A DNA stretch of 64,000 nt from an archaeon (lineage in GTDB: Archaea; Nanobdellota; Nanobdellia; Pacearchaeales; GW2011-AR1), in NCBI GenBank assembly GCA_009992215.1, contig JAACWB010000004.1, positions 8,006 to 72,005 of the forward strand, read 5' to 3'. The first letter of the stretch is position 1. Each line of letters begins with the position of its first letter. The translations under genes were made by a program, and so were the position numbers. Below, in pieces: positions 3,829 to 54,957 of this stretch. The notes under the pieces are model-generated. The model saw only the letters and a program-made list of their open reading frames with translations, did no database searches and had not been told where the DNA came from.

Positions 3829-4947
3829 ATGGGAAAGAGTGTTGTGAATCCTTACGAAATTAAGGGTGCTGTTAATTATGATAGACTTGTTAAGGAATTT
3901 GGAATAACAAAAATTGATGAGAAATTAATTAAGAGAATTGAAAAATTGGTTGGCGAGGTTCATCCTTTCATTAGGAGAGGTATATTTTTTGCACACAGAG
4001 ATTTAGAAAAAATTTTAGATGCTTACGAAAAAGGGGAAAAATTCTTCTTGTACACTGGAATTGGTCCATCTGGCCCCATACATTTAGGCCACATTCAAAC
4101 ATGGAGGCTTGTAAAATGGTTACAGGACAAGTTTAATGTTGAACTTTGGTTTCAATTTACTGATGATGAAAAATTCTTGTATAAAGACATGAGTTATGAG
4201 GAAATTCAAAAGTGGACAAAAGAAAATATGCTTGACGTTATCGCGCTTGGGCTTGACCCAAAGAAAACACATTTTTTGATTGACACTAAACACGCTGGAA
4301 TAATGTACCCTGAAGCAATTAAAGTTGCGAAGAAAATAACTTTTTCAATGATTAAAGGAGCTTTTGGCTTTACAGACTCAAACAATATTGGAAGTATTTT
4401 TTATACGGCAATGCAAACTGTTCCAGTTTTTTTACCTAATGTTTTGAATAATAAACATGAAAGATGTTTAATTCCATTAGGAGTTGATCAAGAACCTCAC
4501 TTTAGAATTAGTCGGGATGTTATTGAAAAGCTTGGTCACATAAAACCTGCAATAATTCATTCAAAGATGATGATTCCGTTAACGGGAATTGAAGGAAAAA
4601 TGTCTTCAACTGAACCAGACAAGGCAATTTTAATGACGGACAGTCCAAGTGAAATTAAGAAAAAAATAAATAAACACGCATTTAGTGGTGGACAAGACAC
4701 TGTTGAAGAACACCGAAAGAAAGGTGGAAATGTTGAAGTTGATGTTGCTTGTCAATGGTTAAAATATTTTGAGGAAGATGATAAAAAACTTGAGGAAATT
4801 TATTCTAAATATAGGAAAGGTGAACTTCTTAGTGGAGAAGTTAAGAAAATTTTAATTGAGAAAGTTCAAGTCTTTTTGGCAGAGCATCAAAAAAGGCGGG
4901 CTAACGCCGAAAAATTAATTGATAAGTTTGTTTACTCGAAAAAATAA
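3829..4947 (+). CDS. trpS: tryptophanyl-tRNA synthetase (archaeal/eukaryotic type)
   Basis: 372 aa. Class I HIGH-region variant GIGPSGPIHLGH and KMSSTEP (a KMSKS variant). The length fits archaeal TrpRS rather than TyrRS, which is about 310 aa. Confidence 0.8.
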   Translation: MGKSVVNPYEIKGAVNYDRLVKEFGITKIDEKLIKRIEKLVGEVHPFIRRGIFFAHRDLEKILDAYEKGEKFFLYTGIGPSGPIHLGHIQTWRLVKWLQDKFNVELWFQFTDDEKFLYKDMSYEEIQKWTKENMLDVIALGLDPKKTHFLIDTKHAGIMYPEAIKVAKKITFSMIKGAFGFTDSNNIGSIFYTAMQTVPVFLPNVLNNKHERCLIPLGVDQEPHFRISRDVIEKLGHIKPAIIHSKMMIPLTGIEGKMSSTEPDKAILMTDSPSEIKKKINKHAFSGGQDTVEEHRKKGGNVEVDVACQWLKYFEEDDKKLEEIYSKYRKGELLSGEVKKILIEKVQVFLAEHQKRRANAEKLIDKFVYSKK

Positions 4948-5786
4948 TTTTTGTTCCTAAGTTCAAAAGTTTTGAAAGATTCATATAGATTATTTGCATA
5001 TTTTTCAATTTCTTCTTCGGATTTTATTTTCTTTTTTACTTTTGGATTTGCTAAGTTGTCTAATTCTACTAACGCTGCATATTTTGCGTGATTCATAAAT
5101 AAAACTCCCAAGTCAAGTGCACCAGAACTGGAATTCATATTTCTTAAACTATAATATTCACTTAAAACTTCTGCAAAGGTTACACAATCTGGAGAATAAT
5201 AATTTAATTTATTCAAATTGACAAAGTTCTTTTTTCCGTCGTTAAGTTCATCATAATTTTTTAATCCATAAAAATAAAACTGGGTTTTTGAAGTAGTGTC
5301 TTTTTTATTGTTATCAAAGTGGAGAGATAAAAAAGCATAAGCATTGTTTTCTTCTGAAAATTTATTTCTTGCTAAAATTTCATCTTTCAAGTTTACATAT
5401 CCGTCATAATTTAGGTCACCTTTATTGATTGATTTATCATTTACATCTTTTTCATCTGTCCTTGTTAAAATAACATTATAACCATCTTCTTTTAATAAAC
5501 CGACCAACATTAATGCAACATCTAGCGTATATTTCCATTCTAATTTATCTCCATCTCCTTTGTAATGTTTTGAGTGGCCAGCATCTATTACAATTGTTTT
5601 TAGTTCATTATGGGGATTTGGAGTTTTATTTTCTGGAGCCGTTAAATTCATTGAACTTAGAAAAAATGTTGTTGCCAAAAGATATTTTGTTAATGTTTTT
5701 AATTTATTAGAAGGTTTTAATTCTGTTAAACTTTCATGAGAAGGAAATATTCCTGGCAAAAGATATTTTACTAATTTACTTACCAT
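4932..5786 (-). CDS. secreted N-acetylmuramoyl-L-alanine amidase-like protein (Amidase_3 family)
   Basis: 284 aa. Signal peptide, then VIDAGHSKHYKGDGDK...LDVALMLVGLLKEDGYNVILTRTDEKDV, matching the Amidase_3 signature (DAGHGG...L.iA..l...L...G..V.lTR). Confidence 0.55.
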   Translation of the reverse strand: MVSKLVKYLLPGIFPSHESLTELKPSNKLKTLTKYLLATTFFLSSMNLTAPENKTPNPHNELKTIVIDAGHSKHYKGDGDKLEWKYTLDVALMLVGLLKEDGYNVILTRTDEKDVNDKSINKGDLNYDGYVNLKDEILARNKFSEENNAYAFLSLHFDNNKKDTTSKTQFYFYGLKNYDELNDGKKNFVNLNKLNYYSPDCVTFAEVLSEYYSLRNMNSSSGALDLGVLFMNHAKYAALVELDNLANPKVKKKIKSEEEIEKYANNLYESFKTFELRNKNYFFE

Positions 5787-5876: not shown

Positions 5877-7577
5877 ATGAAGACATTGAATTTACATGTT
5901 GATTATATTGAATGGGAAGGTTTGAAGAAGGCTTTGAAATCTATGGATGATTTATCTGAAGAGGAAATTAAGAAGCAGAGAGTAGAAGAAACTTTGGTTA
6001 TTATGACTGCTGTTGAAAAGACTGATTCTTTGAAAATGATGGATGAATATCTAGAAAATATTAAGACAATTGCTTCTCAAGTTGGGGCAAAGAATATTGT
6101 TTTATATCCTTATGCTCATTTGTCTAGTGATTTAGGGAAACCTGAATTGGCTGTTGAATTTTTGAAAACTGCTGAGAAAAGATTAAAGGAAGAGGGTGTT
6201 AATGTTTTTCGTGCTCCTTTTGGATATTACAAAACTTTTGAGATGAAAGTAAAGGGTCACCCATTAAGTGAACTTTCAAGAAATATCAAAGGAAATGAAG
6301 AAGAAATTAGAGATTTAACAGATGATGAAAGAACAAAATTGCTAAGGGAAATTTCAAAAGCTAAATTGGATACATCTAAACTTGCTGAAAATGATCATAG
6401 AATTATTGGAAAGAAGATGAATTTGTGGAGTTTTAGTCCCGTTGCACCTGGAATGGTTTTTTGGCATGACAAAGGTTTACACATAAAGAATAAGTTGATT
6501 GAATATTGGAGACAAATACATAGGAGGGAAAATTATGAAGAAATATCTACTCCGCAAATAATGGACAGAAAGCTTTGGGAAATTTCCGGACATTGGTCAA
6601 AATATAGTGAAAATAATTTCAAGACAAATTACGAAGGACGTGACTTTTTAGTTAAACCGATGAATTGTCCAGGAGGGATGTTGGTTTACAAAAATTCCCC
6701 AAAATCTTACAAAAATTTACCTTTGAGGGTAGGAGAATTAGGAATTGTTCACAGAATTGAACTTTCAGGAGTTTTATCAGGGTTGTTTAGAGTAATACAA
6801 TTTACACAGGATGATGCACACATTTTTTGTACTGAAGAACAATTAGAAAATGAAATAATGAAAATAATTCTATTGATACAAGAAGTATATAATACATTCA
6901 ATTTAGAACTTGACCACGTAGAATTGTCTACAAGGCCCGAAAAAAGAATAGGTTCAGAGGAAATTTGGGATAAAGCAGAAGCAGCTTTGGAAAAAGTATT
7001 GAAAAAAACAAAAATGAATTATCAAATTAACGAGGGAGATGGAGCATTCTATGGTCCAAAAATAGACTTCCATCTAAAAGATTCATTAAATAGAACATGG
7101 CAAATGGCAACAATACAATTAGACATGGCACTTCCGGAAAGATTTGATCTAATATATCTTGACAAAGATAGTAAAGAAAAAAGACCTATTATGCTTCACA
7201 GAGTTATTTATGGTGCAATTGACAGATTCCTCGGAATTATTACTGAAAATTATAATGGAAAGTTCCCTCTTTGGATTTCACCAAATCAAATTAAAATTTT
7301 AACTATTGGTGAGAAAGCAAAAGAATTTTCAAAAGAAGTTTATAATGAATTGTTTGAAGCAGGGTTCAGAGTTGAACTTGACGAGAGAAGTGAATCAATT
7401 GGAAAGAAAGTTCGTGAGGCTTCAATTTCTGGATTTAATTATATGGTAACAATTGGCGAAGGTGAAGTAAAGGAAAATGTTATTGCTGTTAAGAAGAATG
7501 GTGAAAAAGACATTTCTAAATTGAGTGTTGAAGAGTTTGTTTTGAAGTTGAAAGAGGAAGTTCGAGGAAAGAAGTAA
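5877..7577 (+). CDS. thrS: threonyl-tRNA synthetase with archaeal N-terminal editing domain
   Basis: 566 aa. Archaeal ThrRS editing-domain start (MKTLNLHVDYIEWE), class II motif 2 (FRVIQFTQDDAHIFC) and a C-terminal anticodon-binding domain. Confidence 0.9.
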   Translation: MKTLNLHVDYIEWEGLKKALKSMDDLSEEEIKKQRVEETLVIMTAVEKTDSLKMMDEYLENIKTIASQVGAKNIVLYPYAHLSSDLGKPELAVEFLKTAEKRLKEEGVNVFRAPFGYYKTFEMKVKGHPLSELSRNIKGNEEEIRDLTDDERTKLLREISKAKLDTSKLAENDHRIIGKKMNLWSFSPVAPGMVFWHDKGLHIKNKLIEYWRQIHRRENYEEISTPQIMDRKLWEISGHWSKYSENNFKTNYEGRDFLVKPMNCPGGMLVYKNSPKSYKNLPLRVGELGIVHRIELSGVLSGLFRVIQFTQDDAHIFCTEEQLENEIMKIILLIQEVYNTFNLELDHVELSTRPEKRIGSEEIWDKAEAALEKVLKKTKMNYQINEGDGAFYGPKIDFHLKDSLNRTWQMATIQLDMALPERFDLIYLDKDSKEKRPIMLHRVIYGAIDRFLGIITENYNGKFPLWISPNQIKILTIGEKAKEFSKEVYNELFEAGFRVELDERSESIGKKVREASISGFNYMVTIGEGEVKENVIAVKKNGEKDISKLSVEEFVLKLKEEVRGKK

Positions 7578-23447: not shown

Positions 23448-23592
23448 AAAATAGATTGTAAAAAATTCTTTATAATTATTTCTATAAAATAAATATTCCT
23501 GATAAAAAATCTCCTCTCCCCCCTCTTTAGAGTCTGATTCTTGATTTATTACAAAGGATTCATTAAATATAAAAATAAAATTAATTGTGTTA

Positions 23593-23665
23593 TAGCGCTA
23601 CCCGGATTCGAACCGGGGTCACGGGATTCAGAGTCCCGTATCCTTGACCGCTAGACTATAGCGCT
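23593..23665 (-). tRNA. tRNA-Gln (anticodon CUG), intronless
   Basis: Minus-strand sequence AGCGCUA ... CGGGA-CUCUGAA-UCCCG ... CCCGG-UUCGAAU-CCGGG-UAGCGCU-A. Canonical cloverleaf with a palindromic acceptor stem. Confidence 0.85.
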
Positions 23666-23705
23666 GAACTAATTGAATTAAAGAAATTTATTTTTTATAC
23701 TTAAC

Positions 23706-23810
23706 GAATATGGATTCGAACCGAAGTCACGGCGAAAATCTTCTGAAAGTGTAATAAATGAACGAAATGAATTTAGAAATCTTTCACAGAATACGAACAG
23801 GGTAGCGCTA
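23706..23810 (+). repeat. tRNA-3'-end-mimic element copy 1 (T-arm-like segment, conserved hairpin, copy of tRNA-Gln 3' terminus)
   Basis: GGATTCGAACCGAAGTCACGG resembles the tRNA-Gln T-arm/variable region. A conserved hairpin has stem CTGAAAG/CTTTCA and a 31-nt loop. The element ends in GGGTAGCGCTA, identical to the last 11 nt of tRNA-Gln. Confidence 0.5.
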
Positions 23811-23820
23811 TTTAATAAAA

Positions 23821-24006
23821 TTAAAGTCTGATTTTACTTTCTCTTATTTTTTCAGAATGTTGATCGAGTCTGCCTGAGACTAGACATTTAAAACAAGTGT
23901 GAACACCAGAGGCATCTTTTACAATTCCTGTGTTGTTGCAGTCAGGACATTTTTCATTTTCCATTAGAAAAATAGTATTGTTCCATATATAAATACGATT
24001 ATTCAA
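23821..24006 (-). CDS. small zinc-ribbon protein
   Basis: 61 aa with CPDC ... CFKC. Confidence 0.35.
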   Translation of the reverse strand: MNNRIYIWNNTIFLMENEKCPDCNNTGIVKDASGVHTCFKCLVSGRLDQHSEKIRESKIRL

Positions 24007-24070
24007 AATACAATATCTTATACAAATATATTTAGATAAGATTTAAATAAATGATAGATTAATTCTGTTT

Positions 24071-24643
24071 ATGGACATAAATAAAATTCAAGAGACGTTA
24101 ATTCAGGTTTCGCTACGTATTGCAAAGCGAGGAGAGGGTGCACTTTTTGTAGTTGGTGAAATTGAACATAAGCCATTAGTTGATCAATCTGTTCCGCCAT
24201 TTAATGTTACTAAAAACCCGAAACTTCTTGAGTCGCTTGCATTAATGGATGGGGCTGTAATTATTGATAAACAAGGATTTATGCAGTCATACGGCGTTAG
24301 GGTGAAGAGTACAAAAGTTTTCAAGAATTATGGAACAAGGCACAGTGCTGCAATTAGTGCTGCGAAGGGAGACAACTTGGTTGTTATTGTTTCTGAGGAA
24401 GATAAAAAAATTAGAATCTTGAAAAAAGGTAAAATGATTATGCAAATTGATGCTCTTCAAAAAGATGTTGAGAAAAGTATTCCAAAGGCTATGCAAGTTT
24501 TGGAATCTATTGGAGCTGGAACTGTTGGAACAATTGGAACTAGTTTACTTCTTCCGGCGCTTGGAATTAGTTTTTTACCTGGAGTTATTGTATTTGGTTC
24601 TGTTTATTATTTGGGAAAAATTCTTCACAAGAAAAAGAAGTAA
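24071..24643 (+). CDS. diadenylate cyclase (DAC domain, DacZ-like) with C-terminal membrane anchor
   Basis: 190 aa. DAC signatures MDGAVIID and YGTRHSAAISAA (DGA / GTRHxAA) plus a C-terminal hydrophobic helix. Confidence 0.8.
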   Translation: MDINKIQETLIQVSLRIAKRGEGALFVVGEIEHKPLVDQSVPPFNVTKNPKLLESLALMDGAVIIDKQGFMQSYGVRVKSTKVFKNYGTRHSAAISAAKGDNLVVIVSEEDKKIRILKKGKMIMQIDALQKDVEKSIPKAMQVLESIGAGTVGTIGTSLLLPALGISFLPGVIVFGSVYYLGKILHKKKK

Positions 24644-24736
24644 GATTTTTACAAAATCCTTTTAAACGAAGAGAAATTATATTTGTTATCGGTATTTCCG
24701 ATAATTTGGATGGAGATTAAAATTTCTATCTTGGAA

Positions 24737-24900
24737 GCCCCAGTAGTATAGTGGCCAAGTACGCCGCCCTCTCAAGAAAATTAGATTACATAATCTGAGA
24801 AGAGGTGATTCTAATCTTGGTGAAAGAGGTGAATCTAGCGTCTCAACGCAACCATTTTCAGAGTACGGCGGTAACCCGAGTTCAAATCTCGGCTGGGGCG
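24737..24900 (+). tRNA. tRNA-Glu (anticodon CUC) with a roughly 90-nt intron at the canonical 37/38 position
   Basis: Exon 1 is GCCCCAG ... CCGCC-CUCUCAA. The intron spans about 24776-24866. Exon 2 is GGCGG ... CCGAG-UUCAAAU-CUCGG-CUGGGGC-G. Confidence 0.75.
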
Positions 24901-24933
24901 TAAAATATTCTAATTGAGTTTTAACGAGGGGAA

Positions 24934-25025
24934 CCCGATTCAAATCCGAGCATTTCTGAAAGTGTAATAAATGAACGAAGTGAATTTATATCAGCTTTCA
25001 CGGAATGTGAGTTAGGGCTGTGGCG
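24934..25025 (+). repeat. tRNA-3'-end-mimic element copy 2 (degenerate tRNA-Glu T-arm, conserved hairpin, copy of tRNA-Glu 3' terminus)
   Basis: CCCGATTCAAATCCGAG matches the tRNA-Glu T-arm CCGAGTTCAAATCTCGG. The same hairpin (CTGAAAG-TGTAATAAATGAACGAAGTGAATTTA-...-CTTTCAC) is present. The element ends in GGGCTGTGGCG versus GGCTGGGGCG in the tRNA. Confidence 0.5.
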
Positions 25026-25076
25026 TTTTGTTTTTAGTGAAGAAAGAATTAAATAATCTTTATATCTTGAGGAATT

Positions 25077-25589
25077 ATGAAAGACGATGGAATTGAATTA
25101 GCAAAATCTTGGTTTGAATTAACAAAAATACTTACAGTTTTAGCAGGATTATTTTTTGTATTAGCCTCTTTACATGCTAGTTCATATTCTTCTCTTAGGT
25201 ATAATTTAGATCTTCCTATGAAAGCGTGTCAATTTTCTCTAAATAATGATTTTGAAACTGTTCTTGGAATAAATTTAAGTTATGAAGATTGCGTTTCATT
25301 AATTGAAATTCAAATTCTAGATGAAATAGAAAAAAATCAAAAAATTACATATACTTTGGTTTTCTTGGGATTTCTTTCTATTCTTAATTCTTTCTTTTTT
25401 TGGATTGTGGGAAGACTAAAATTATCAAAAAATGAAATTAGACTTTGGCAAATAGTTTCTTTGTGGATATGTTTAAATTTTTTTTTAATTTTTTTATTTT
25501 ATTTATCTGTATTTGGATCTTATATTATTAGCAAACCAATTCAAATAGGAAATAAAACTATTGATCTATGTGATTATGGATATTGTTAA
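25077..25589 (+). CDS. hypothetical membrane protein
   Basis: 170 aa with multiple TM helices. Confidence 0.4.
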   Translation: MKDDGIELAKSWFELTKILTVLAGLFFVLASLHASSYSSLRYNLDLPMKACQFSLNNDFETVLGINLSYEDCVSLIEIQILDEIEKNQKITYTLVFLGFLSILNSFFFWIVGRLKLSKNEIRLWQIVSLWICLNFFLIFLFYLSVFGSYIISKPIQIGNKTIDLCDYGYC

Positions 25590-34210: not shown

Positions 34211-34330
34211 TAATTTTTATTCTTTTTTGTCTATATCTAAGAAATAATTTTTTACAATCAGACGATTGCTGCAAAATAATTTCTAAAATCTATCCTAAAA
34301 AATAATTCAAAATTGAAAAATAGAATTAAT

Positions 34331-34366
34331 TTAGATTAGCTAAATTTTTATAAATTCCTGAATTAA
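34331..34366 (+). promoter_or_regulatory. 36-bp promoter-like element, copy 1 (contains the TATA-like TTTATAAA), 8 nt upstream of the ATG of the 34375 gene
   Basis: TTAGATTAGCTAAATTTTTATAAATTCCTGAATTAA. It is identical to the copy at 35015-35050. The TATA-like box lies about 22-29 nt upstream of the start codon, implying a leaderless transcript. Confidence 0.5.
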
Positions 34367-34374
34367 ATAAATGT

Positions 34375-35022
34375 ATGAGTAAATATATTGAAGATTTAAC
34401 AGATGAAGAATTAAAGAAATTAGAAAGAGTTTGTTCTGGAAAAGCTTTAACTCAATATTATTTAGATACAAAAAAAGGAGATTCAAATATTCAATTTCAA
34501 AAATTAATTTGGAAGACGAATTATTATGGAAAAGATTTATTTAAATTTAGAGAAGCTTACAAAAGAGATAATCTATCAATGGAGGAAAATGGATTGAATT
34601 TTGTTTTTACAGGATTAACCTTGGATTATTTAGTTGATTTGACTGAAGATGGAATTGAAAAATGGAAAAAAGAAAATGAAAATAAATTTGAGGTTATAGA
34701 TTACGGAAGAAATAAATATAATTATGCAACGGGAAAATTCAATGTAAAGCCCATTAGTATTGATTTTGAATTAAATGGATTGAAAGTCAATGCAAAGATT
34801 GTAAATTATATTGATGAACTCTATAAATGCCCTTTTTCTATTTTTGAGAATGAAGAATTTATCAAAGGATACAAATTGTATGAATTAACCAATACTAAAA
34901 ATAACAGAAAAATTAAATTTTCAAATATTGTTTCCCACATGATTCAACAACACCATTTTTTTGGAGGGAAAAATTCAGATAACAGATTAGAGCCGAAAGA
35001 ATTTTCTGATTTTTTAGATTAG
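34375..35022 (+). CDS. hypothetical protein
   Basis: 215-aa ORF directly downstream of promoter-repeat copy 1. Confidence 0.4.
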   Translation: MSKYIEDLTDEELKKLERVCSGKALTQYYLDTKKGDSNIQFQKLIWKTNYYGKDLFKFREAYKRDNLSMEENGLNFVFTGLTLDYLVDLTEDGIEKWKKENENKFEVIDYGRNKYNYATGKFNVKPISIDFELNGLKVNAKIVNYIDELYKCPFSIFENEEFIKGYKLYELTNTKNNRKIKFSNIVSHMIQQHHFFGGKNSDNRLEPKEFSDFLD

Positions 35023-35050
35023 CTAAATTTTTATAAATTCCTGAATTAAG
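35015..35050 (+). promoter_or_regulatory. 36-bp promoter-like element, copy 2, 7 nt upstream of the ATG of the 35058 gene
   Basis: Perfect 36/36 direct repeat of the element at 34331-34366. It overlaps the stop codon of the preceding ORF. Confidence 0.5.
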
Positions 35051-35057
35051 TAATAAT

Positions 35058-35477
35058 ATGACTAAACACATTTGTACAATATGCAAGAATTCCTTTCCTG
35101 ATAAAGATTCTGCAATCTTCCACGAAGAACTTCCTATTTTGGAAGGAATTTATCATGGCATGATACTAAAAGAGGAAATTGGTTATTTGGTGTTTAGGAA
35201 ATCTGACAAAATTTCAAAAGAGCATGAAAGAATTTATACAGTTTCTAAATTTTTCAAAGTTCAAGATAAAGGTGGAATTGGACGGTATTTGAAAAAATAT
35301 TCTTATTCAGAAATTGACAAGAAAGTTGAAGATAAAGAATTTGTTGGACTTAGCACAGAAGAATTTGAATCTGTAAAACATTTTTTAGAAAAAAATCATC
35401 TTTATCATGATATTTTAGAATTCAAAAATTTGGATGAAACGCTAGAACTTATTCCAAAGAAAAAAAGAAATAATTAA
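35058..35477 (+). CDS. hypothetical protein with N-terminal Cys2-His zinc-finger-like motif
   Basis: 139 aa with CTICKNSFPDKDSAIFHEE near the N-terminus. Confidence 0.4.
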   Translation: MTKHICTICKNSFPDKDSAIFHEELPILEGIYHGMILKEEIGYLVFRKSDKISKEHERIYTVSKFFKVQDKGGIGRYLKKYSYSEIDKKVEDKEFVGLSTEEFESVKHFLEKNHLYHDILEFKNLDETLELIPKKKRNN

Positions 35478-45544: not shown

Positions 45545-46033
45545 ATTTAGAGCAATATCTAACCAGATTGTATAATTTTTTGGATTTAATTTAATTTCCT
45601 TCTTTAAAATTTTTGGATTAATCCATTTGTAATCATTTACTTCATTTGGATTTGGATTGATTTTTCCGTCATGAATAGCCTTGAAAACGTGATCAATTTC
45701 ATATTCTGTCAAACCATTTTCAAAATTTATTTTGTAAATAAATTTTCCAATATATTTTAATGGTGCAGAAAAACCCATTTCTTCTGGTAATCTCCTATAA
45801 GCTGCATTAATTGTTTTCTCATTTGGTCTTGGATGAGAACAACAAGTGTTCGCCCAAAGTCCAGGACAATGATATTTTTCAAGTGCTCGTTGCTGAATTA
45901 AAAGTTCTCCTTTGGAATTGAAAACAAAATTTGAAATTGCTCGATGTAAAAGTCCTTTTTTATGAGCGAGGAGTTTTTCTTCTTCTCCAATTTCATTATC
46001 AAATTTATCAACAAGAATTACTTTTTCAATCAT
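45533..46033 (-). CDS. idi: isopentenyl-diphosphate delta-isomerase, type 1 (Nudix fold)
   Basis: 166 aa. LLHRAISNFVFNSKGELLIQQRALEKYHCPGLWANTCCSHP matches the IDI-1 signature (HRAFS.F.FN..g.LL.Q.RA..K..fPg.WtNtcCsHP). Confidence 0.75.
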   Translation of the reverse strand: MIEKVILVDKFDNEIGEEEKLLAHKKGLLHRAISNFVFNSKGELLIQQRALEKYHCPGLWANTCCSHPRPNEKTINAAYRRLPEEMGFSAPLKYIGKFIYKINFENGLTEYEIDHVFKAIHDGKINPNPNEVNDYKWINPKILKKEIKLNPKNYTIWLDIALNLFF

Positions 46034-47871: not shown

Positions 47872-47937
47872 AATTGAATGTCAAAGTAATCGCCTGCGCC
47901 AATGGCTTGATTCGATTCAAAAAAGAAATGGTCCCGG
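47872..47937 (-). repeat. 66-bp perfect direct repeat (copy 1 of 2) comprising the tRNA-Val 3' terminus plus 53 bp of 3' flank
   Basis: AATTGAATGTCAAAGTAATCGCCTGCGCCAATGGCTTGATTCGATTCAAAAAAGAAATGGTCCCGG is identical to 48085-48150. Confidence 0.7.
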
Positions 47938-48020
47938 ACAACTTGCACTCCGTGAAATTTCTAAATTCATTTCATTCATTTATTGAAATTTCAGAAGATG
48001 CTCGGGAATCGAACGATTCC
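47929..48020 (-). repeat. tRNA-3'-end-mimic element copy 3 (T-arm-like palindrome, conserved hairpin, copy of tRNA-Val 3' terminus)
   Basis: Read on the minus strand: GGAATCGTTCGATTCC, then CGAGCAT, then the hairpin (CTGAAATTTC-AATAAATGAATGAAATGAATTTAG-AAATTTCAC), then CCGGGACCA. The loop matches copies 1 and 2 at about 90%. A further 19-nt copy of the tRNA-Val 3' end lies at 48029-48048. Confidence 0.5.
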
Positions 48021-48141
48021 TGCAAAATAAAGAAATGGTCCCGGCAGGACTCTACTCTTACCCCGCCATTCTAGCCTTCGGCATAATTGAATGTCAAAGT
48101 AATCGCCTGCGCCAATGGCTTGATTCGATTCAAAAAAGAAA

Positions 48142-48213
48142 TGGTCCCGGCAGGAATCGAACCTGCGCCATCTCGGTGTAAACGAGAGGGTCTACCATTA
48201 GCCTACGAGACCG
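48142..48213 (-). tRNA. tRNA-Val (anticodon UAC)
   Basis: Minus-strand sequence GGTCTCG-UA-...-UCUCG-UUUACAC-CGAGA-...-GCAGG-UUCGAUU-CCUGC-CGGGACC-A. The D-stem is slightly imperfect. This copy also carries repeat copy 2 (48085-48150) at its 3' end. Confidence 0.8.
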
Positions 48214-51108: not shown

Positions 51109-51224
51109 AATTATTTTTATTAATAATTATACTTAAATTTATTGTAATACATGCGCCAGACCGTGTAGCTCTCAACCTTGAAATGTTCTTTAAACTCATT
51201 TTATTCGTTTATTAGAAATTTCAA

Positions 51225-51400
51225 AGTTGTTCGTCGAACCCCCGGGTTCTCACCCCGAAAGAACTATGCGCCGACCGGGGCTCGGTTGGTGGCAAAACCA
51301 CACAACAAGCCAAAACATCGCGAATGTTTTGACTTAACCCGGGCTTCATGCTTCTTGCATGAAATCTATTTTGAATTTGACGGGTGAGAGCACCGAAGAA
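51225..51400 (-). ncRNA. GC-rich structured element immediately downstream of tRNA-Gly, ending in a 20-bp copy of the tRNA-Gly 3' terminus; candidate ncRNA or integration-site remnant
   Basis: Local GC about 50% against about 30% background. Hairpins GTTCG-T-CGAAC, CGGGG-TGAGAA-CCCG and GTGG-CAAAA-CCAC. TATGCGCCGACCGGGGCTCG at 51264-51283 is identical to 51431-51450 inside tRNA-Gly. The two ORFs predicted here are probably artefacts of the GC-rich sequence. Confidence 0.3.
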
Positions 51401-51432
51401 AAAATTATATTTTATTTCATAAAATATAATAT

Positions 51433-51505
51433 ATGCGCCGACCGGGGCTCGAACCCGGGTCACAACCTTGGCAAGGTCGCATTCTACCACTGAACTATCA
51501 GCGCG
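51433..51505 (-). tRNA. tRNA-Gly (anticodon GCC)
   Basis: Minus-strand sequence GCGCUGA-UA-GUUC-AGUGGUA-GAAU-G-CGACC-UUGCCAA-GGUUG-UGAC-CCGGG-UUCGAGC-CCCGG-UCGGCGC-A. Confidence 0.85.
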
Positions 51506-54216: not shown

Positions 54217-54957
54217 ATGGCAAAAGTAAAATATTTGGCAACTGGAGTTTTGGCGCTAGGTTTAGCTTCAAACTTGAATGCACAAGATTCTAAGACAAAT
54301 GGGACAATTATGTATGATTTAGACAAAAATTCTAACGAAGTTGTCTTGAAAAAAAATAAATTAGAAAAGAATTTTTCAAATACAAAATTAAGATTAAATG
54401 CTGGGGCTGGAATATATTTAACGAAGCCTGAAACTTATTTTGTAGAATTAAACCCTCAAATTAATATTGGAAAAGATTTTTGGACTGGAATTTATGCAAA
54501 GGCAGTTACAAAAGCAAATGATTTTAGTGAAGATGTTGAAATTGATAGAACACAAATTATGTCTGATTGGTACTCTGAAACTGAAAGACACACTTCTCAA
54601 TTATTCAAAACTAATAATCCAATTGAAGCGGGAGTAAATCTTTCAAAAGGTTTGGGAAGATTTTTTGAAGTTGGTTTATCTACTGGAATTAGATATCAAA
54701 AAGAATCATTAACAAAACAAATTTCTGGATTTGACAGAACAATTAATGATGGTGTTTTAATCGAAGAAAAACCATTTTATTTGCCTTCAACAAAAACTAA
54801 TTCGGATTCATTTAGTCCAATTATTTCAACTGAATTAAAATTTTATCCTCAAAAAAATATTTTTTTGTCGGGTGAAGCAAGTTACAATTTAAGAGATAAG
54901 CGTTCAGAAATTAAAGCTAAAATCGGAATTACACTTGGAGGTAAAAAGAGAAAATGA
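54217..54957 (+). CDS. secreted beta-rich protein
   Basis: 246 aa. Signal peptide and alternating amphipathic beta-strand-like composition. Confidence 0.4.
   Translation: MAKVKYLATGVLALGLASNLNAQDSKTNGTIMYDLDKNSNEVVLKKNKLEKNFSNTKLRLNAGAGIYLTKPETYFVELNPQINIGKDFWTGIYAKAVTKANDFSEDVEIDRTQIMSDWYSETERHTSQLFKTNNPIEAGVNLSKGLGRFFEVGLSTGIRYQKESLTKQISGFDRTINDGVLIEEKPFYLPSTKTNSDSFSPIISTELKFYPQKNIFLSGEASYNLRDKRSEIKAKIGITLGGKKRK

Follow-up and report, generated by a model that had tools for sequence, protein, structure and literature searches.

RtT repeats behind tRNA genes of Escherichia coli have been known since the late 1970s, the older papers on them reportedly being those of Egan and Landy in 1978 and of Rossi in 1981. 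The E. coli units lie after tyrT, tyrV, and serX and score 133-137 bits with the Rfam model RF00391, the consensus of which pairs a 5' GgGaaGG with a 3' CCuuCcC to form an outer helix. The tyrT unit reads GGGGAAGG-ATGAGAA-GCTTCGA-CC-AAGGTTCGA, followed by a 66-nt insert and AATCCTTCCCCCACCACCA, and is composed of an antisense T-arm with the loop ATGAGAA for ATTCGAA, a sense T-stem with TTCGA up to A58, the structured insert rich in C-GAA-G hairpins, and tRNA nucleotides 59-76. Passages of one paper describe rttR as encoded by a single repeat unit within the tyrT operon and, with reference to Bosl and Kersten 1991, E. coli rtT RNA as a stable small RNA released from the tRNA operon transcript (PMC3318445); the mode of action of RtT/rttR is called unknown in passages of the same paper and of bioRxiv 10.1101/2024.07.17.603846. 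The present analysis concerns a 64-kb stretch of the archaeal contig JAACWB010000004.1 (Pacearchaeales), referred to as the window, in which small repeat units accompany four of the five tRNA genes (Gln, Glu, Val, and Gly), tRNA-Tyr being without a unit. The other genome and metagenome contigs compared carry L numbers. It is considered fairly probable that the units are an archaeal variant of RtT-like tRNA-linked repeats, recombining at tRNA ends, containing a selected hairpin, and probably giving rise to a small RNA encoded in the tRNA trailer. Literature searches gave only integration-derived tRNA fragments and split tRNAs, and no description of such units in Archaea was found.

tRNA-linked units in the window

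Each unit duplicates, in part and in rearranged order, the 3' third of the adjoining tRNA gene. A short trailer, mostly AT-rich in the units read, precedes an antisense copy of all or part of the tRNA T-arm, as in the type A unit of L002 (L002_A), where GAACCTGGG is the reverse complement of CCCAGGTTC. The sense T-stem 5' strand and T-loop come next and are particular to the neighboring tRNA (TTCAAATC for Glu, TTCGATTCC for Val, and TTAAAATC for Ile), followed by a hairpin of ~70 nt inserted within the T-arm. The unit closes with the sense remainder of the T-arm and acceptor 3' strand and the discriminator, with CCA only where the gene encodes CCA; this last part is a copy of the final 8-21 nt of the tRNA, and T-rich sequence comes after it in the window units. 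Unit lengths range from about 105 to 170 nt. The rate at which an 11-mer copy with at most one mismatch would occur by chance within 450 nt on both strands is, by the author's arithmetic, ~0.007 per tRNA.

The 26-nt core TGTAATAAATGAACGAARTGAATTTA of the hairpin is present on the plus strand at 23750-23775 and 24963-24988 and, with 3 mismatches, on the minus strand at 47962-47987; it was matched in 0 of 100 shuffled sequences, chance predicting none. Run on the whole 64 kb, a covariance model of the hairpin, termed R1, recovers exactly four copies, termed W1, W2, W3, and W4. The initial annotation had described elements beside tRNA-Gln and tRNA-Glu with a common conserved core and with terminal copies of the tRNA ends, and a third copy at tRNA-Val, all of which are found (the third with an R1 score of 70.1 bits). 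Its statement that the core is far more conserved than the flanks also holds, with 25 of 26 core positions the same in copies 1 and 2 and a mean whole-unit identity of 72% among the three units. The inventory was too small, the reported copies being real and W4, a type-B-like unit (WB), and a type C unit having been missed.

The tRNA-Gln(CUG) gene (23593-23665, minus strand; ARAGORN and Rfam tRNA model, 67.1 bits) is the source of the tRNA-derived pieces of W1 (23706-23810, plus strand; type A, framework ii as defined below; R1 match 23731-23801, 63.4 bits). This unit is located upstream of the gene and divergent from it, not 3' of it. On sequence comparison its antisense piece GGATTCGAACCGAAGTCACGGCGA (23712-23735, plus strand) is the reverse complement of approximately positions 41-64 of tRNA-Gln, covering the T-arm, the variable loop, and the 3' strand of the anticodon stem, and its reverse complement TCGCCGTGACTTCGGTTCGAATCC agrees with tRNA-Gln CCCGTGACCCCGGTTCGAATCC at 19 of 21 positions over the right-hand part. 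W1 ends at 23800-23810 (plus strand) with GGGTAGCGCTA, an exact copy (11/11) of the last 11 nt of tRNA-Gln. It is seemingly the most decayed copy, with a C.A mismatch at the apical Y-R pair and a degenerate CGAG/YGAG motif. The initial description of a degenerate T-arm resembling that of the adjacent tRNA is supported as to the tRNA origin of the flanks, but the piece in copy 1 is antisense and its unit lies divergent and upstream of tRNA-Gln.

The tRNA-Glu(CUC) gene (24737-24900, plus strand) is interrupted at the canonical position by a 91-nt intron and is detected only when introns are permitted in ARAGORN. W2 (24901-25025, plus strand; type A, framework ii; R1 match 24945-25015, 75.2 bits) follows directly on the same strand and is the only unit at this locus. 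Its T-arm-like segment GAACCCGATTCAAATCCGAG (24931-24950) includes the tRNA-Glu-specific piece given above, and its copy of the tRNA-Glu 3' end, GGGCTGTGGCG (25015-25025, plus strand), has one mismatch and one extra G and is followed by the T-run TTTTGTTTTT. Drawn by hand, the intron has the canonical hBHBh' form of the bulge-helix-bulge (BHB) motif, CCGCC-CUCU-CA/A-GAAAA ... UUUUC-AGAG-UA/C-GGCGG. The hint that the hairpin might be derived from this intron is not sustained, as R1 finds nothing in the intron and TTTTCAGAG there is part of the intron's own canonical BHB. The tRNA-Glu gene and tRNA-Tyr (62670-62811, 67-nt intron) both escape default ARAGORN and the Rfam tRNA model; the tRNA-Tyr intron of L001 is 138 nt, and long canonical tRNA introns seem common in the lineage.

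Two units and a partial one are arranged behind the tRNA-Val(UAC) gene (48142-48212, minus strand; CCA encoded; ARAGORN/Rfam). WB (48036-48141, minus strand), between tRNA-Val and W3, ends in TCCTGCCGGGACCA, the last 14 nt of tRNA-Val, and has an apical GCC-GAA-GGC similar to the L002 type B unit; it is probably of type B, R1 giving no match at E<=1 there. W3 (47929-48035, minus strand; type A, framework ii; R1 match 47938-48006) carries the tRNA-Val-specific GCAGG..TTCGATTCC and ends in GTCCGGGACCA at 47929-47939. A 66-nt segment at 47872-47937 (minus strand; repeat family D6) is a direct repeat of 48085-48150 with 100% identity and a spacing of 213. This repeat is composed of the tRNA 3' end and the first 53 nt of WB, and therefore the array closes with a truncated unit and has the order tRNA-B-A-partial B.

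Behind the tRNA-Gly(GCC) gene (51434-51504, minus strand; ARAGORN/Rfam) the order is tRNA-C-W4. The type C unit (51267-51433, minus strand), recognized by comparison with tRNA-Gly, contains an antisense T-arm (51381-51394) reading GGTGCTCTCACCCG, which matches tRNA-Gly at 12 of 15 positions, then a spacer hairpin, the sense piece CCCGGGTT, a 51-nt insertion (51285-51335), and CGAGCCCCGGTCGGCGCA. Removal of the 51 nt leaves 26/26 nt of the tRNA-Gly 3' part, which places the insert between T55 and C56. W4 (51152-51266, minus strand; type A, framework i; R1 match 51165-51235, 83.7 bits) contains GGGGTGAGAACCCGGGGGTTCGACGAAC, the hairpin, GAGAGC, and the final CGGTCTGGCGCA. A second model built on the 5' module, R2, matches W4 at 51229-51259 with 40.7 bits, W4 being among its building sequences.

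Two frameworks are distinguished. Framework (i) reads (T-stem-like)-RTGAGAACC-loop-GGTTCGA/CGAG...YGAGCA/C62-73 and is present in W4, L012, L015, L017, L035, L041, and L002_B. In framework (ii), present in W1-W3, L001, L002_A, L004, and L028, the T-loop is kept to position 61/62 and the tRNA sequence restarts at about 63-66. The insertion points by unit type are after 53/54, 55, 58, 61-62, or 63, all within the T-arm. In the tRNA-Leu unit of L041 the hairpin is inverted and the tRNA-derived pieces are still in the tRNA orientation. Type B aligns to type A under R1, and the two are therefore variants of one module.

Fold and covariation of the hairpin

The consensus fold of 14 copies from the window and other contigs, aligned with MAFFT and folded with RNAalifold, is a long irregular hairpin. 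The outer closure is a C-G pair followed by tandem G.A/A.G (CGAG ... YGAG). The first inner helix covaries between CAAC/GUUG, UAAU/AUUA, and CAUC/GGUG, and the second helix occurs as GAAAU/AUUUC, GAAAG/CUUUC, and CAAAAU/AUUUUG. The apical helix is AAAU-GA-A-Y[GAA]R-U-GA-AUUU, with a tandem G.A motif and a GAA triloop, and its Y-R pair is C-G in six and U-A in six of the 14 copies. The 31-nt stretch that had been described as a loop is itself a helix and not single-stranded, both in the RNAalifold consensus and in the model alignment.

Covariation was counted on a model-based alignment of 27 matches, 21 of them distinct. In the distinct copies pairing holds for 95.5% of the cells, and changes on both sides are seen in 11 of 18 pairs; 0 of 500 shuffled controls match the observed pairing values, and sliding the partner by 1-3 columns leaves 27-52% paired. 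This alignment was fitted to R1 and is biased toward structure, and the independent MAFFT/RNAalifold analysis concurs. The hairpin is under selection, as the initial annotation had argued, which is evident from the covariation together with the invariant unpaired bases. G.U pairs are frequent (columns 9-89 and 12-87), so the structure is strand-specific, which speaks for RNA, or for one strand of DNA, and against a protein site on the duplex. The selected hairpin is most likely an RNA structure.

Other readings of the conserved sequence were tried and rejected. A small open reading frame (ORF; MNEVNLKKI...) crosses the hairpin apex with variable length and stop position; W4 is without its ATG and keeps the base pair through a compensated U-A to C-G change, which means that the ORF is spurious and not coding. 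A remnant of the SSV-type int(N) was rejected along with it, integrase homology having been sought only by Pfam on neighboring ORFs. A hammerhead-like reading of GAUGAG-stem-CGAC lacks the essential C3 and A14 (GAC for GAA), and Rfam gives no hammerhead match. A box C/D, kink-turn, or H/ACA small RNA was likewise discarded, with GAUGAGA...CUGA spaced by ~22 nt where ~12 is needed and the tRNA-like segments in sense orientation; Rfam gives no snoRNA-type match on the units. Searches with Rfam at gathering thresholds and at E<=10 find only tRNAs among known RNA families on the units.

Distribution, arrays, and turnover

The core pattern was scanned for in one genome per species and in metagenome contigs. 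As had been suggested initially, the search was extended over related DPANN genomes, and it finds the core in Nanoarchaeota/Woesearchaeota contigs, where the module stands directly behind at least 10 kinds of tRNA gene and is often arranged in tandem. Every true element of the pattern scan elsewhere lies directly 3' of a tRNA for Tyr, Gln, Ile, Thr, Asp, Asn, Met, or Leu, and in the genome and metagenome scans each element ends with the last 8-21 nt of its own tRNA. R1 also gives matches on which it was not trained, behind tRNA-Glu of L004 and tRNA-Leu of L041. The units are strictly linked to tRNA 3' ends in many genomes, and the tRNA kinds that have them, in the window and the scans together, are Tyr, Gln, Ile, Thr, Asp, Asn, Met, Leu, Glu, Val, and Gly.

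More distantly, an identical 25-nt apical hairpin occurs in repeat arrays of two Thermoplasmatota-type contigs, L003 (Candidatus Saliniplasma; 5900-6270) and L027 (SL_5KL_010_SEDDRAFT; 4860-4960). These arrays are behind tRNA-Ala and tRNA-Val with the hairpin on the strand opposite the tRNA, and they also hold a recurrent TTCTAACTNCCYA motif. The neighbors of the Thermoplasmatota copies (TFB, MutS, Elp3, EF-1alpha, and S10) are housekeeping genes, and inspection of the neighboring genes found no integrase. The scan of viral contigs gave 0 matches to the core. Good-scoring copies are mostly in the same sense as the tRNA, and the copies placed antisense to it (W1, two in L041, L003, and L027) score 27-63 bits.

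Two further forms of unit were observed. At 8949-9050 of L108/L109 two mini units of the same grammar lie behind tRNA-Thr with hairpin inserts of 13 nt and 9 nt (CGGACAAAGTCCG and TGCGAAGCA), and at 9770-9851 of L104 a unit behind tRNA-Gln contains an unmodified antisense T-loop, ATTCGAACC.

The number of units varies between close relatives. The array of L002 has the order tRNA-Gln-B-A-B-partial A and that of L018 the order tRNA-Gln-B-A-B-A-B-partial A with a period of 219 nt; the two contigs are identical over the common part of the locus and differ in array length. In L017 a first copy is followed by a second, decayed copy. The arrays, the truncated distal units, and the differences in copy number point to recombination between repeated tRNA ends. 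Exchange between loci of one genome is suggested by private central sequences, W1 and W2 sharing GTGTAAT and the L004 and L005 units being identical over 45 nt while the outer helices and flanks differ. Over 345 nt L046 departs from the window only at the tRNA-Glu end, where the acceptor 3' strand of L046 (3100-3106) is CTGTGGCG, the T variant of W2, and that of the window (24894-24900) is CTGGGGCG. The T variant would give a C.U mismatch in the acceptor stem; the change looks like gene conversion from W2, although L046 is a low-coverage contig in which a sequencing or assembly error at the repeat is possible.

The comparison with sister genomes for empty sites, also proposed at the outset, covered strain contigs and more distant relatives. 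Eight near-identical strain contigs with an identical diadenylate cyclase (DAC) protein all carry W1 and W2, with no empty site among them. Among the relatives with tRNA-Gln/DAC/tRNA-Glu synteny, L106-L108 are without units at tRNA-Gln and tRNA-Glu and are too diverged to define the junctions. Also seen among the syntenic relatives are the different unit type of L104 behind tRNA-Gln and the mini units of L108 behind tRNA-Thr. Such variable states among syntenic relatives indicate rapid turnover.

An insertion of 7.5 kb is present in L109 (10619-18161) at the extreme 3' end of tRNA-Glu. It lies between direct repeats of 10 nt, GGCCGGGGCG, and has CCTTAGGTT near both of its ends. L108 (10595-10610) is the empty counterpart; the two contigs agree in gene order around the site, and their DAC proteins and tRNA-Glu genes are identical. 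The cargo includes a 1496-amino acid beta-helix/NosD-like protein, a 620-amino acid protein without a Pfam match, a YoeB/ParE-like toxin pair, and a DUF2080 "transposon-encoded" protein. No recognizable integrase is found within the 7.5 kb, and neither the hairpin nor T-arm pieces occur at the insertion ends. The filled site of L109 against the empty site of L108 shows that ordinary tRNA-end integration is active in the lineage.

Two other repeats were observed in the window. Three tandem repeats of ~279 nt (55368-56238; families D2 and D13) are located within the ORF 54954-56681 and probably specify domain repeats in a surface protein. A 60-nt repeat (34330-34389 and 35013-35072, 88% identical) covers the upstream region and start codon of the adjacent ORFs 34375-35022 and 35058-35477, which may be tandem paralogues with a common promoter or leader.

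Candidate explanations and comparison with known systems

As archaeal RtT-like repeats, the units would grow and shrink in number through recombination between duplicated tRNA 3' ends, and the hairpin module would pass among the tRNA loci of one genome. By analogy, a unit is probably transcribed as the tRNA 3' trailer or from its own AT-rich spacer, and its transcript probably matured at the tRNA-like 3' end to a structured small RNA of ~100 nt, as reported for E. coli rtT RNA. The units may also be largely selfish or neutral.

Several points weigh against this interpretation. Its steps of transcription and processing rest on analogy. T-runs stand straight after several tRNA ends (for tRNA-Val, TTTCTTTTTT), so archaeal transcription should stop before the unit, and the inverted copies (W1, L041-Leu, and Thermoplasmatota) do not fit obligatory co-transcription. 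The arrival of a first unit at a new tRNA is left unexplained. The RF00391 model (gathering threshold 45 bits) gives no match at E<=10 on window positions 23500-25100 or on L018, L012, L015, L017, L035, L041, and L002, and the archaeal 5'-module model scores RtT at noise level, 15.7 bits compared with 15.9 for a chance coding match in the window at 45827-45858. Furthermore, the GAACC...GGTTCGA part of the likeness is automatic for any antisense-plus-sense T-arm. The framework (i) 5'-module scan of viral contigs returned mostly chance coding matches together with two enterobacterial-type contigs called RtT RNA by Rfam. Three traits in common with RtT are non-trivial, namely the loop RTGAGAA, an insert that follows A58, and the behavior as arrays. 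The archaeal units are accordingly classed as RtT-like in construction and not as members of RF00391.

An unlikely alternative derives the units, as scars or as miniature forms lacking autonomy, from mobile elements with site-specific integration at tRNA 3' ends, the repeated tRNA end being the att core, the hairpin an arm site for a recombinase acting in trans, and the arrays a result of tandem accretion. Direct repeats of the tRNA 3' end border every unit and the arrays look like accretion, the L109 insertion with its empty L108 counterpart lies at a tRNA-Glu 3' end, and partial tRNA genes in Archaea mostly arise as by-products when elements integrate (PMC9897764, PMC3293823). The near identity of the hairpin core across phyla suggests horizontal movement. 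However, no integrase or mobile-element gene is found in or beside the units (integrase was sought only by Pfam on neighboring ORFs), the neighbors are cellular genes such as those for diadenylate cyclase, TFB, EF-1alpha, S10, MutS, and Elp3, and the unit size is small and consistent (~105-125 nt). tRNA-specific T-arm pieces lie inside the unit, across the hairpin from the att-like repeat, where a phage attachment (attP) arm would not be tRNA-specific. The ends of the L109 element are without hairpin or T-arm pieces, the viral-contig core scan is empty, and RtT arrays of E. coli occur without a known integrase. The stems covary instead of conserving sequence, which argues for a folded single strand and not a duplex protein site. 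The proposal of the initial annotation that the elements are remnants of att sites is accordingly considered unlikely, given the absence of mobile-element genes, the housekeeping neighbors, and the tRNA-specific T-arm pieces.

Its second proposal, a tRNA-targeting miniature element, comes closest of the three it made, as the module is common to several loci, is partly homogenized, and varies in copy number, but it has no terminal inverted repeats or target-site duplication of its own. A more specific form of this idea, in which the ~70-nt hairpin is a small mobile insertion aimed at the T-arm/T-loop of tRNA-derived DNA, the flanks are its target, and insertions are tolerated only in spare partial copies, so that the intact tRNA upstream is preserved, is rather improbable. 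It is consistent with the same module being present in tRNA-specific flanks at many tRNAs of one genome with identical centers (45 nt in L004/L005 and GTGTAAT in W1/W2), with all insertion points lying within the T-arm, with the clean type C insertion whose removal gives 26/26 nt, and with a module that occurs in either orientation in a scaffold fixed in the tRNA orientation (L041-Leu). Inter-unit gene conversion accounts equally well for the within-genome similarity, though, and the insertion point varies, contrary to a site-specific enzyme. Terminal inverted repeats beyond the stem, a duplicated target site on either side of the module, and a candidate transposase are all absent; framework (i) is without positions 59-61, and the spare partial tRNA copies and antisense T-arm are not accounted for. 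Measured against a miniature inverted-repeat transposable element (MITE) or an element derived from an insertion sequence, the units have no inverted repeats but the hairpin stems, and the flanking tRNA-end repeats are of variable length (8-21 nt, in some cases with trailer up to 66 nt).

A broader form of the favored interpretation, in which RtT-like units from E. coli to DPANN and Thermoplasmatota are one cross-domain class generated by a single mechanism acting on T-arms and encoding a small RNA with a conserved part in the physiology of tRNAs or of translation, is held with little confidence. If it were true, the RNA would mask its T-arm by the antisense copy and show a free tRNA-like acceptor 3' tail, and it could be a decoy or a sensor for tRNA 3'-end-reading enzymes, or else a self-propagating tRNA-guided element.

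It is very improbable that the conserved sequence is a DNA-level signal and not RNA, such as a portable promoter with a TATA-like TTTAAAG, a terminator, or a protein-binding site. In its favor are the AT-richness of the sequence, the TTTAAA motif, the finding of either orientation with respect to the tRNA, and an intergenic position upstream of genes such as TFB, but the compensatory changes and frequent G.U pairs reflect selection on one folded strand, and a 25-nt identity across phyla is far above the needs of TBP/TFB binding.

The third proposal of the initial annotation, in which the units serve as 3' exons or halves of tRNAs that are split, permuted, or interrupted by several introns and a splicing endonuclease removes the hairpin, is scarcely credible and is rejected, since a complete tRNA gene of the same identity adjoins in every case, the BHB folding test gave no motif that could be drawn by hand at any unit border (only 1-nt bulges and 3x4 internal loops, with a textbook BHB in the tRNA-Glu intron of the same window), excision restores no T-arm in W1-W4 and leaves T-arms with indels or 3 bases gone, the acceptor copies of W2, W3, and W4 have mismatches, no 5' half with a complementary trailer is seen, and the antisense T-arm has no role, all of this against a correct order of T-arm and acceptor 3' pieces around the hairpin, the relaxed specificity of DPANN endonucleases (PMC5829648), the perfect 26-nt tRNA 3' part of type C minus 51 nt, and Nanobdellota genomes some of which seem to be without a detectable tRNA-Trp or tRNA-Val (bioRxiv 10.64898/2026.05.13.725050).

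Recognition of the units accounts for pseudo-tRNA fragments and for repeat-induced assembly ambiguity near tRNAs in DPANN metagenome-assembled genomes, and such fragments should not be taken for split tRNAs or integration scars. Non-canonical BHB introns and the split or permuted tRNAs of Thermoproteales, Nanoarchaeum, and Caldivirga resemble the units in having an insert in the T-arm region and similar inserts at several tRNAs per genome. The units differ from them in having no BHB, in that an intact gene makes the interrupted copy redundant, and in that excision from type A gives no functional T-arm. Integration-derived archaeal partial tRNAs (SSV/pNOB8-type, Thermococcaceae fragments, and the Caldiarchaeum tRNA-Thr model) have, like the units, a duplicated 3' part downstream of an intact gene with tandem accretion possible, L109 being an example in a relative. 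Unlike them, the units contain no element genes, are of constant small size, have a conserved hairpin interrupting the tRNA copy with an antisense T-arm ahead of it, and show the same hairpin at many tRNAs. Repetitive extragenic palindromic (REP) sequences, their paired hairpin form (REPINs), and MITEs are likewise short, multicopy, hairpin-forming, intergenic, and homogeneous within a genome. REPINs keep their arms and vary the loop, whereas the archaeal units keep the apex while the arms covary; the units further differ from these families in their strict tRNA linkage and tRNA-derived flanks, and have no known link to a REP-associated tyrosine transposase (RAYT) or other transposase.

The close architectural parallel is with enterobacterial RtT, which is absent from the initial annotation. 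Both are tandem direct repeats of variable number right 3' of tRNA genes, the serX arrays holding from 0 to at least 5 units across E. coli strains. Tandem units 3' of a tRNA and ending with a copy of its own end are found at the Val and Gly loci of the window and in L002/L018, the Glu locus has a single unit, and W1 is the divergent exception. At 385-420 of L102 (E. coli JNE141411, "empty" serX) a 58-nt trailer is followed by GGGTGCCCCCGCC...AGGGCGAGGGGAAA, which by eye only resembles a decayed RtT unit; if this relic is real, the shortest serX allele seems not to be a clean empty site and does not define the primary insertion event.

In both systems the unit closes with a copy of the tRNA 3' terminal segment (in RtT from the T-loop), and the final unit of an array is truncated or decayed. 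Framework (i) shares with RtT the antisense T-arm with an RTGAGAA loop, the sense T-stem with TTCGA, and the structured insert after A58. Outer-helix pairs drawn by hand for framework (i) units of other contigs are CCGG/CCGG, CUGG/CCGG, ACAG/CUGU, and CCAG/CUGG; W4 has GTGAGAACC and an outer helix could not be drawn. Framework (ii) units W1-W3 keep only the GAACC part without an outer helix, and they are unlike RtT in lacking a 5' strand able to pair with the copy at the 3' end and in being inserted after 61/62. The archaeal units are shorter (about 105-125 nt compared with 178 nt for RtT), the inserted hairpins have no sequence similarity, and the host domain differs.

The same construction plan behind many tRNAs of tiny DPANN genomes and in Thermoplasmatota suggests a general phenomenon and not an enterobacterial curiosity. 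With their strongly covarying hairpin, the archaeal units offer a second and independent body of data on which questions of origin and of RNA role can be examined. To the RtT repeats known in Enterobacteria the Archaea add a different, covarying insert, a wider range of tRNAs, and a spread across phyla, through which an old oddity of E. coli becomes a comparative problem.

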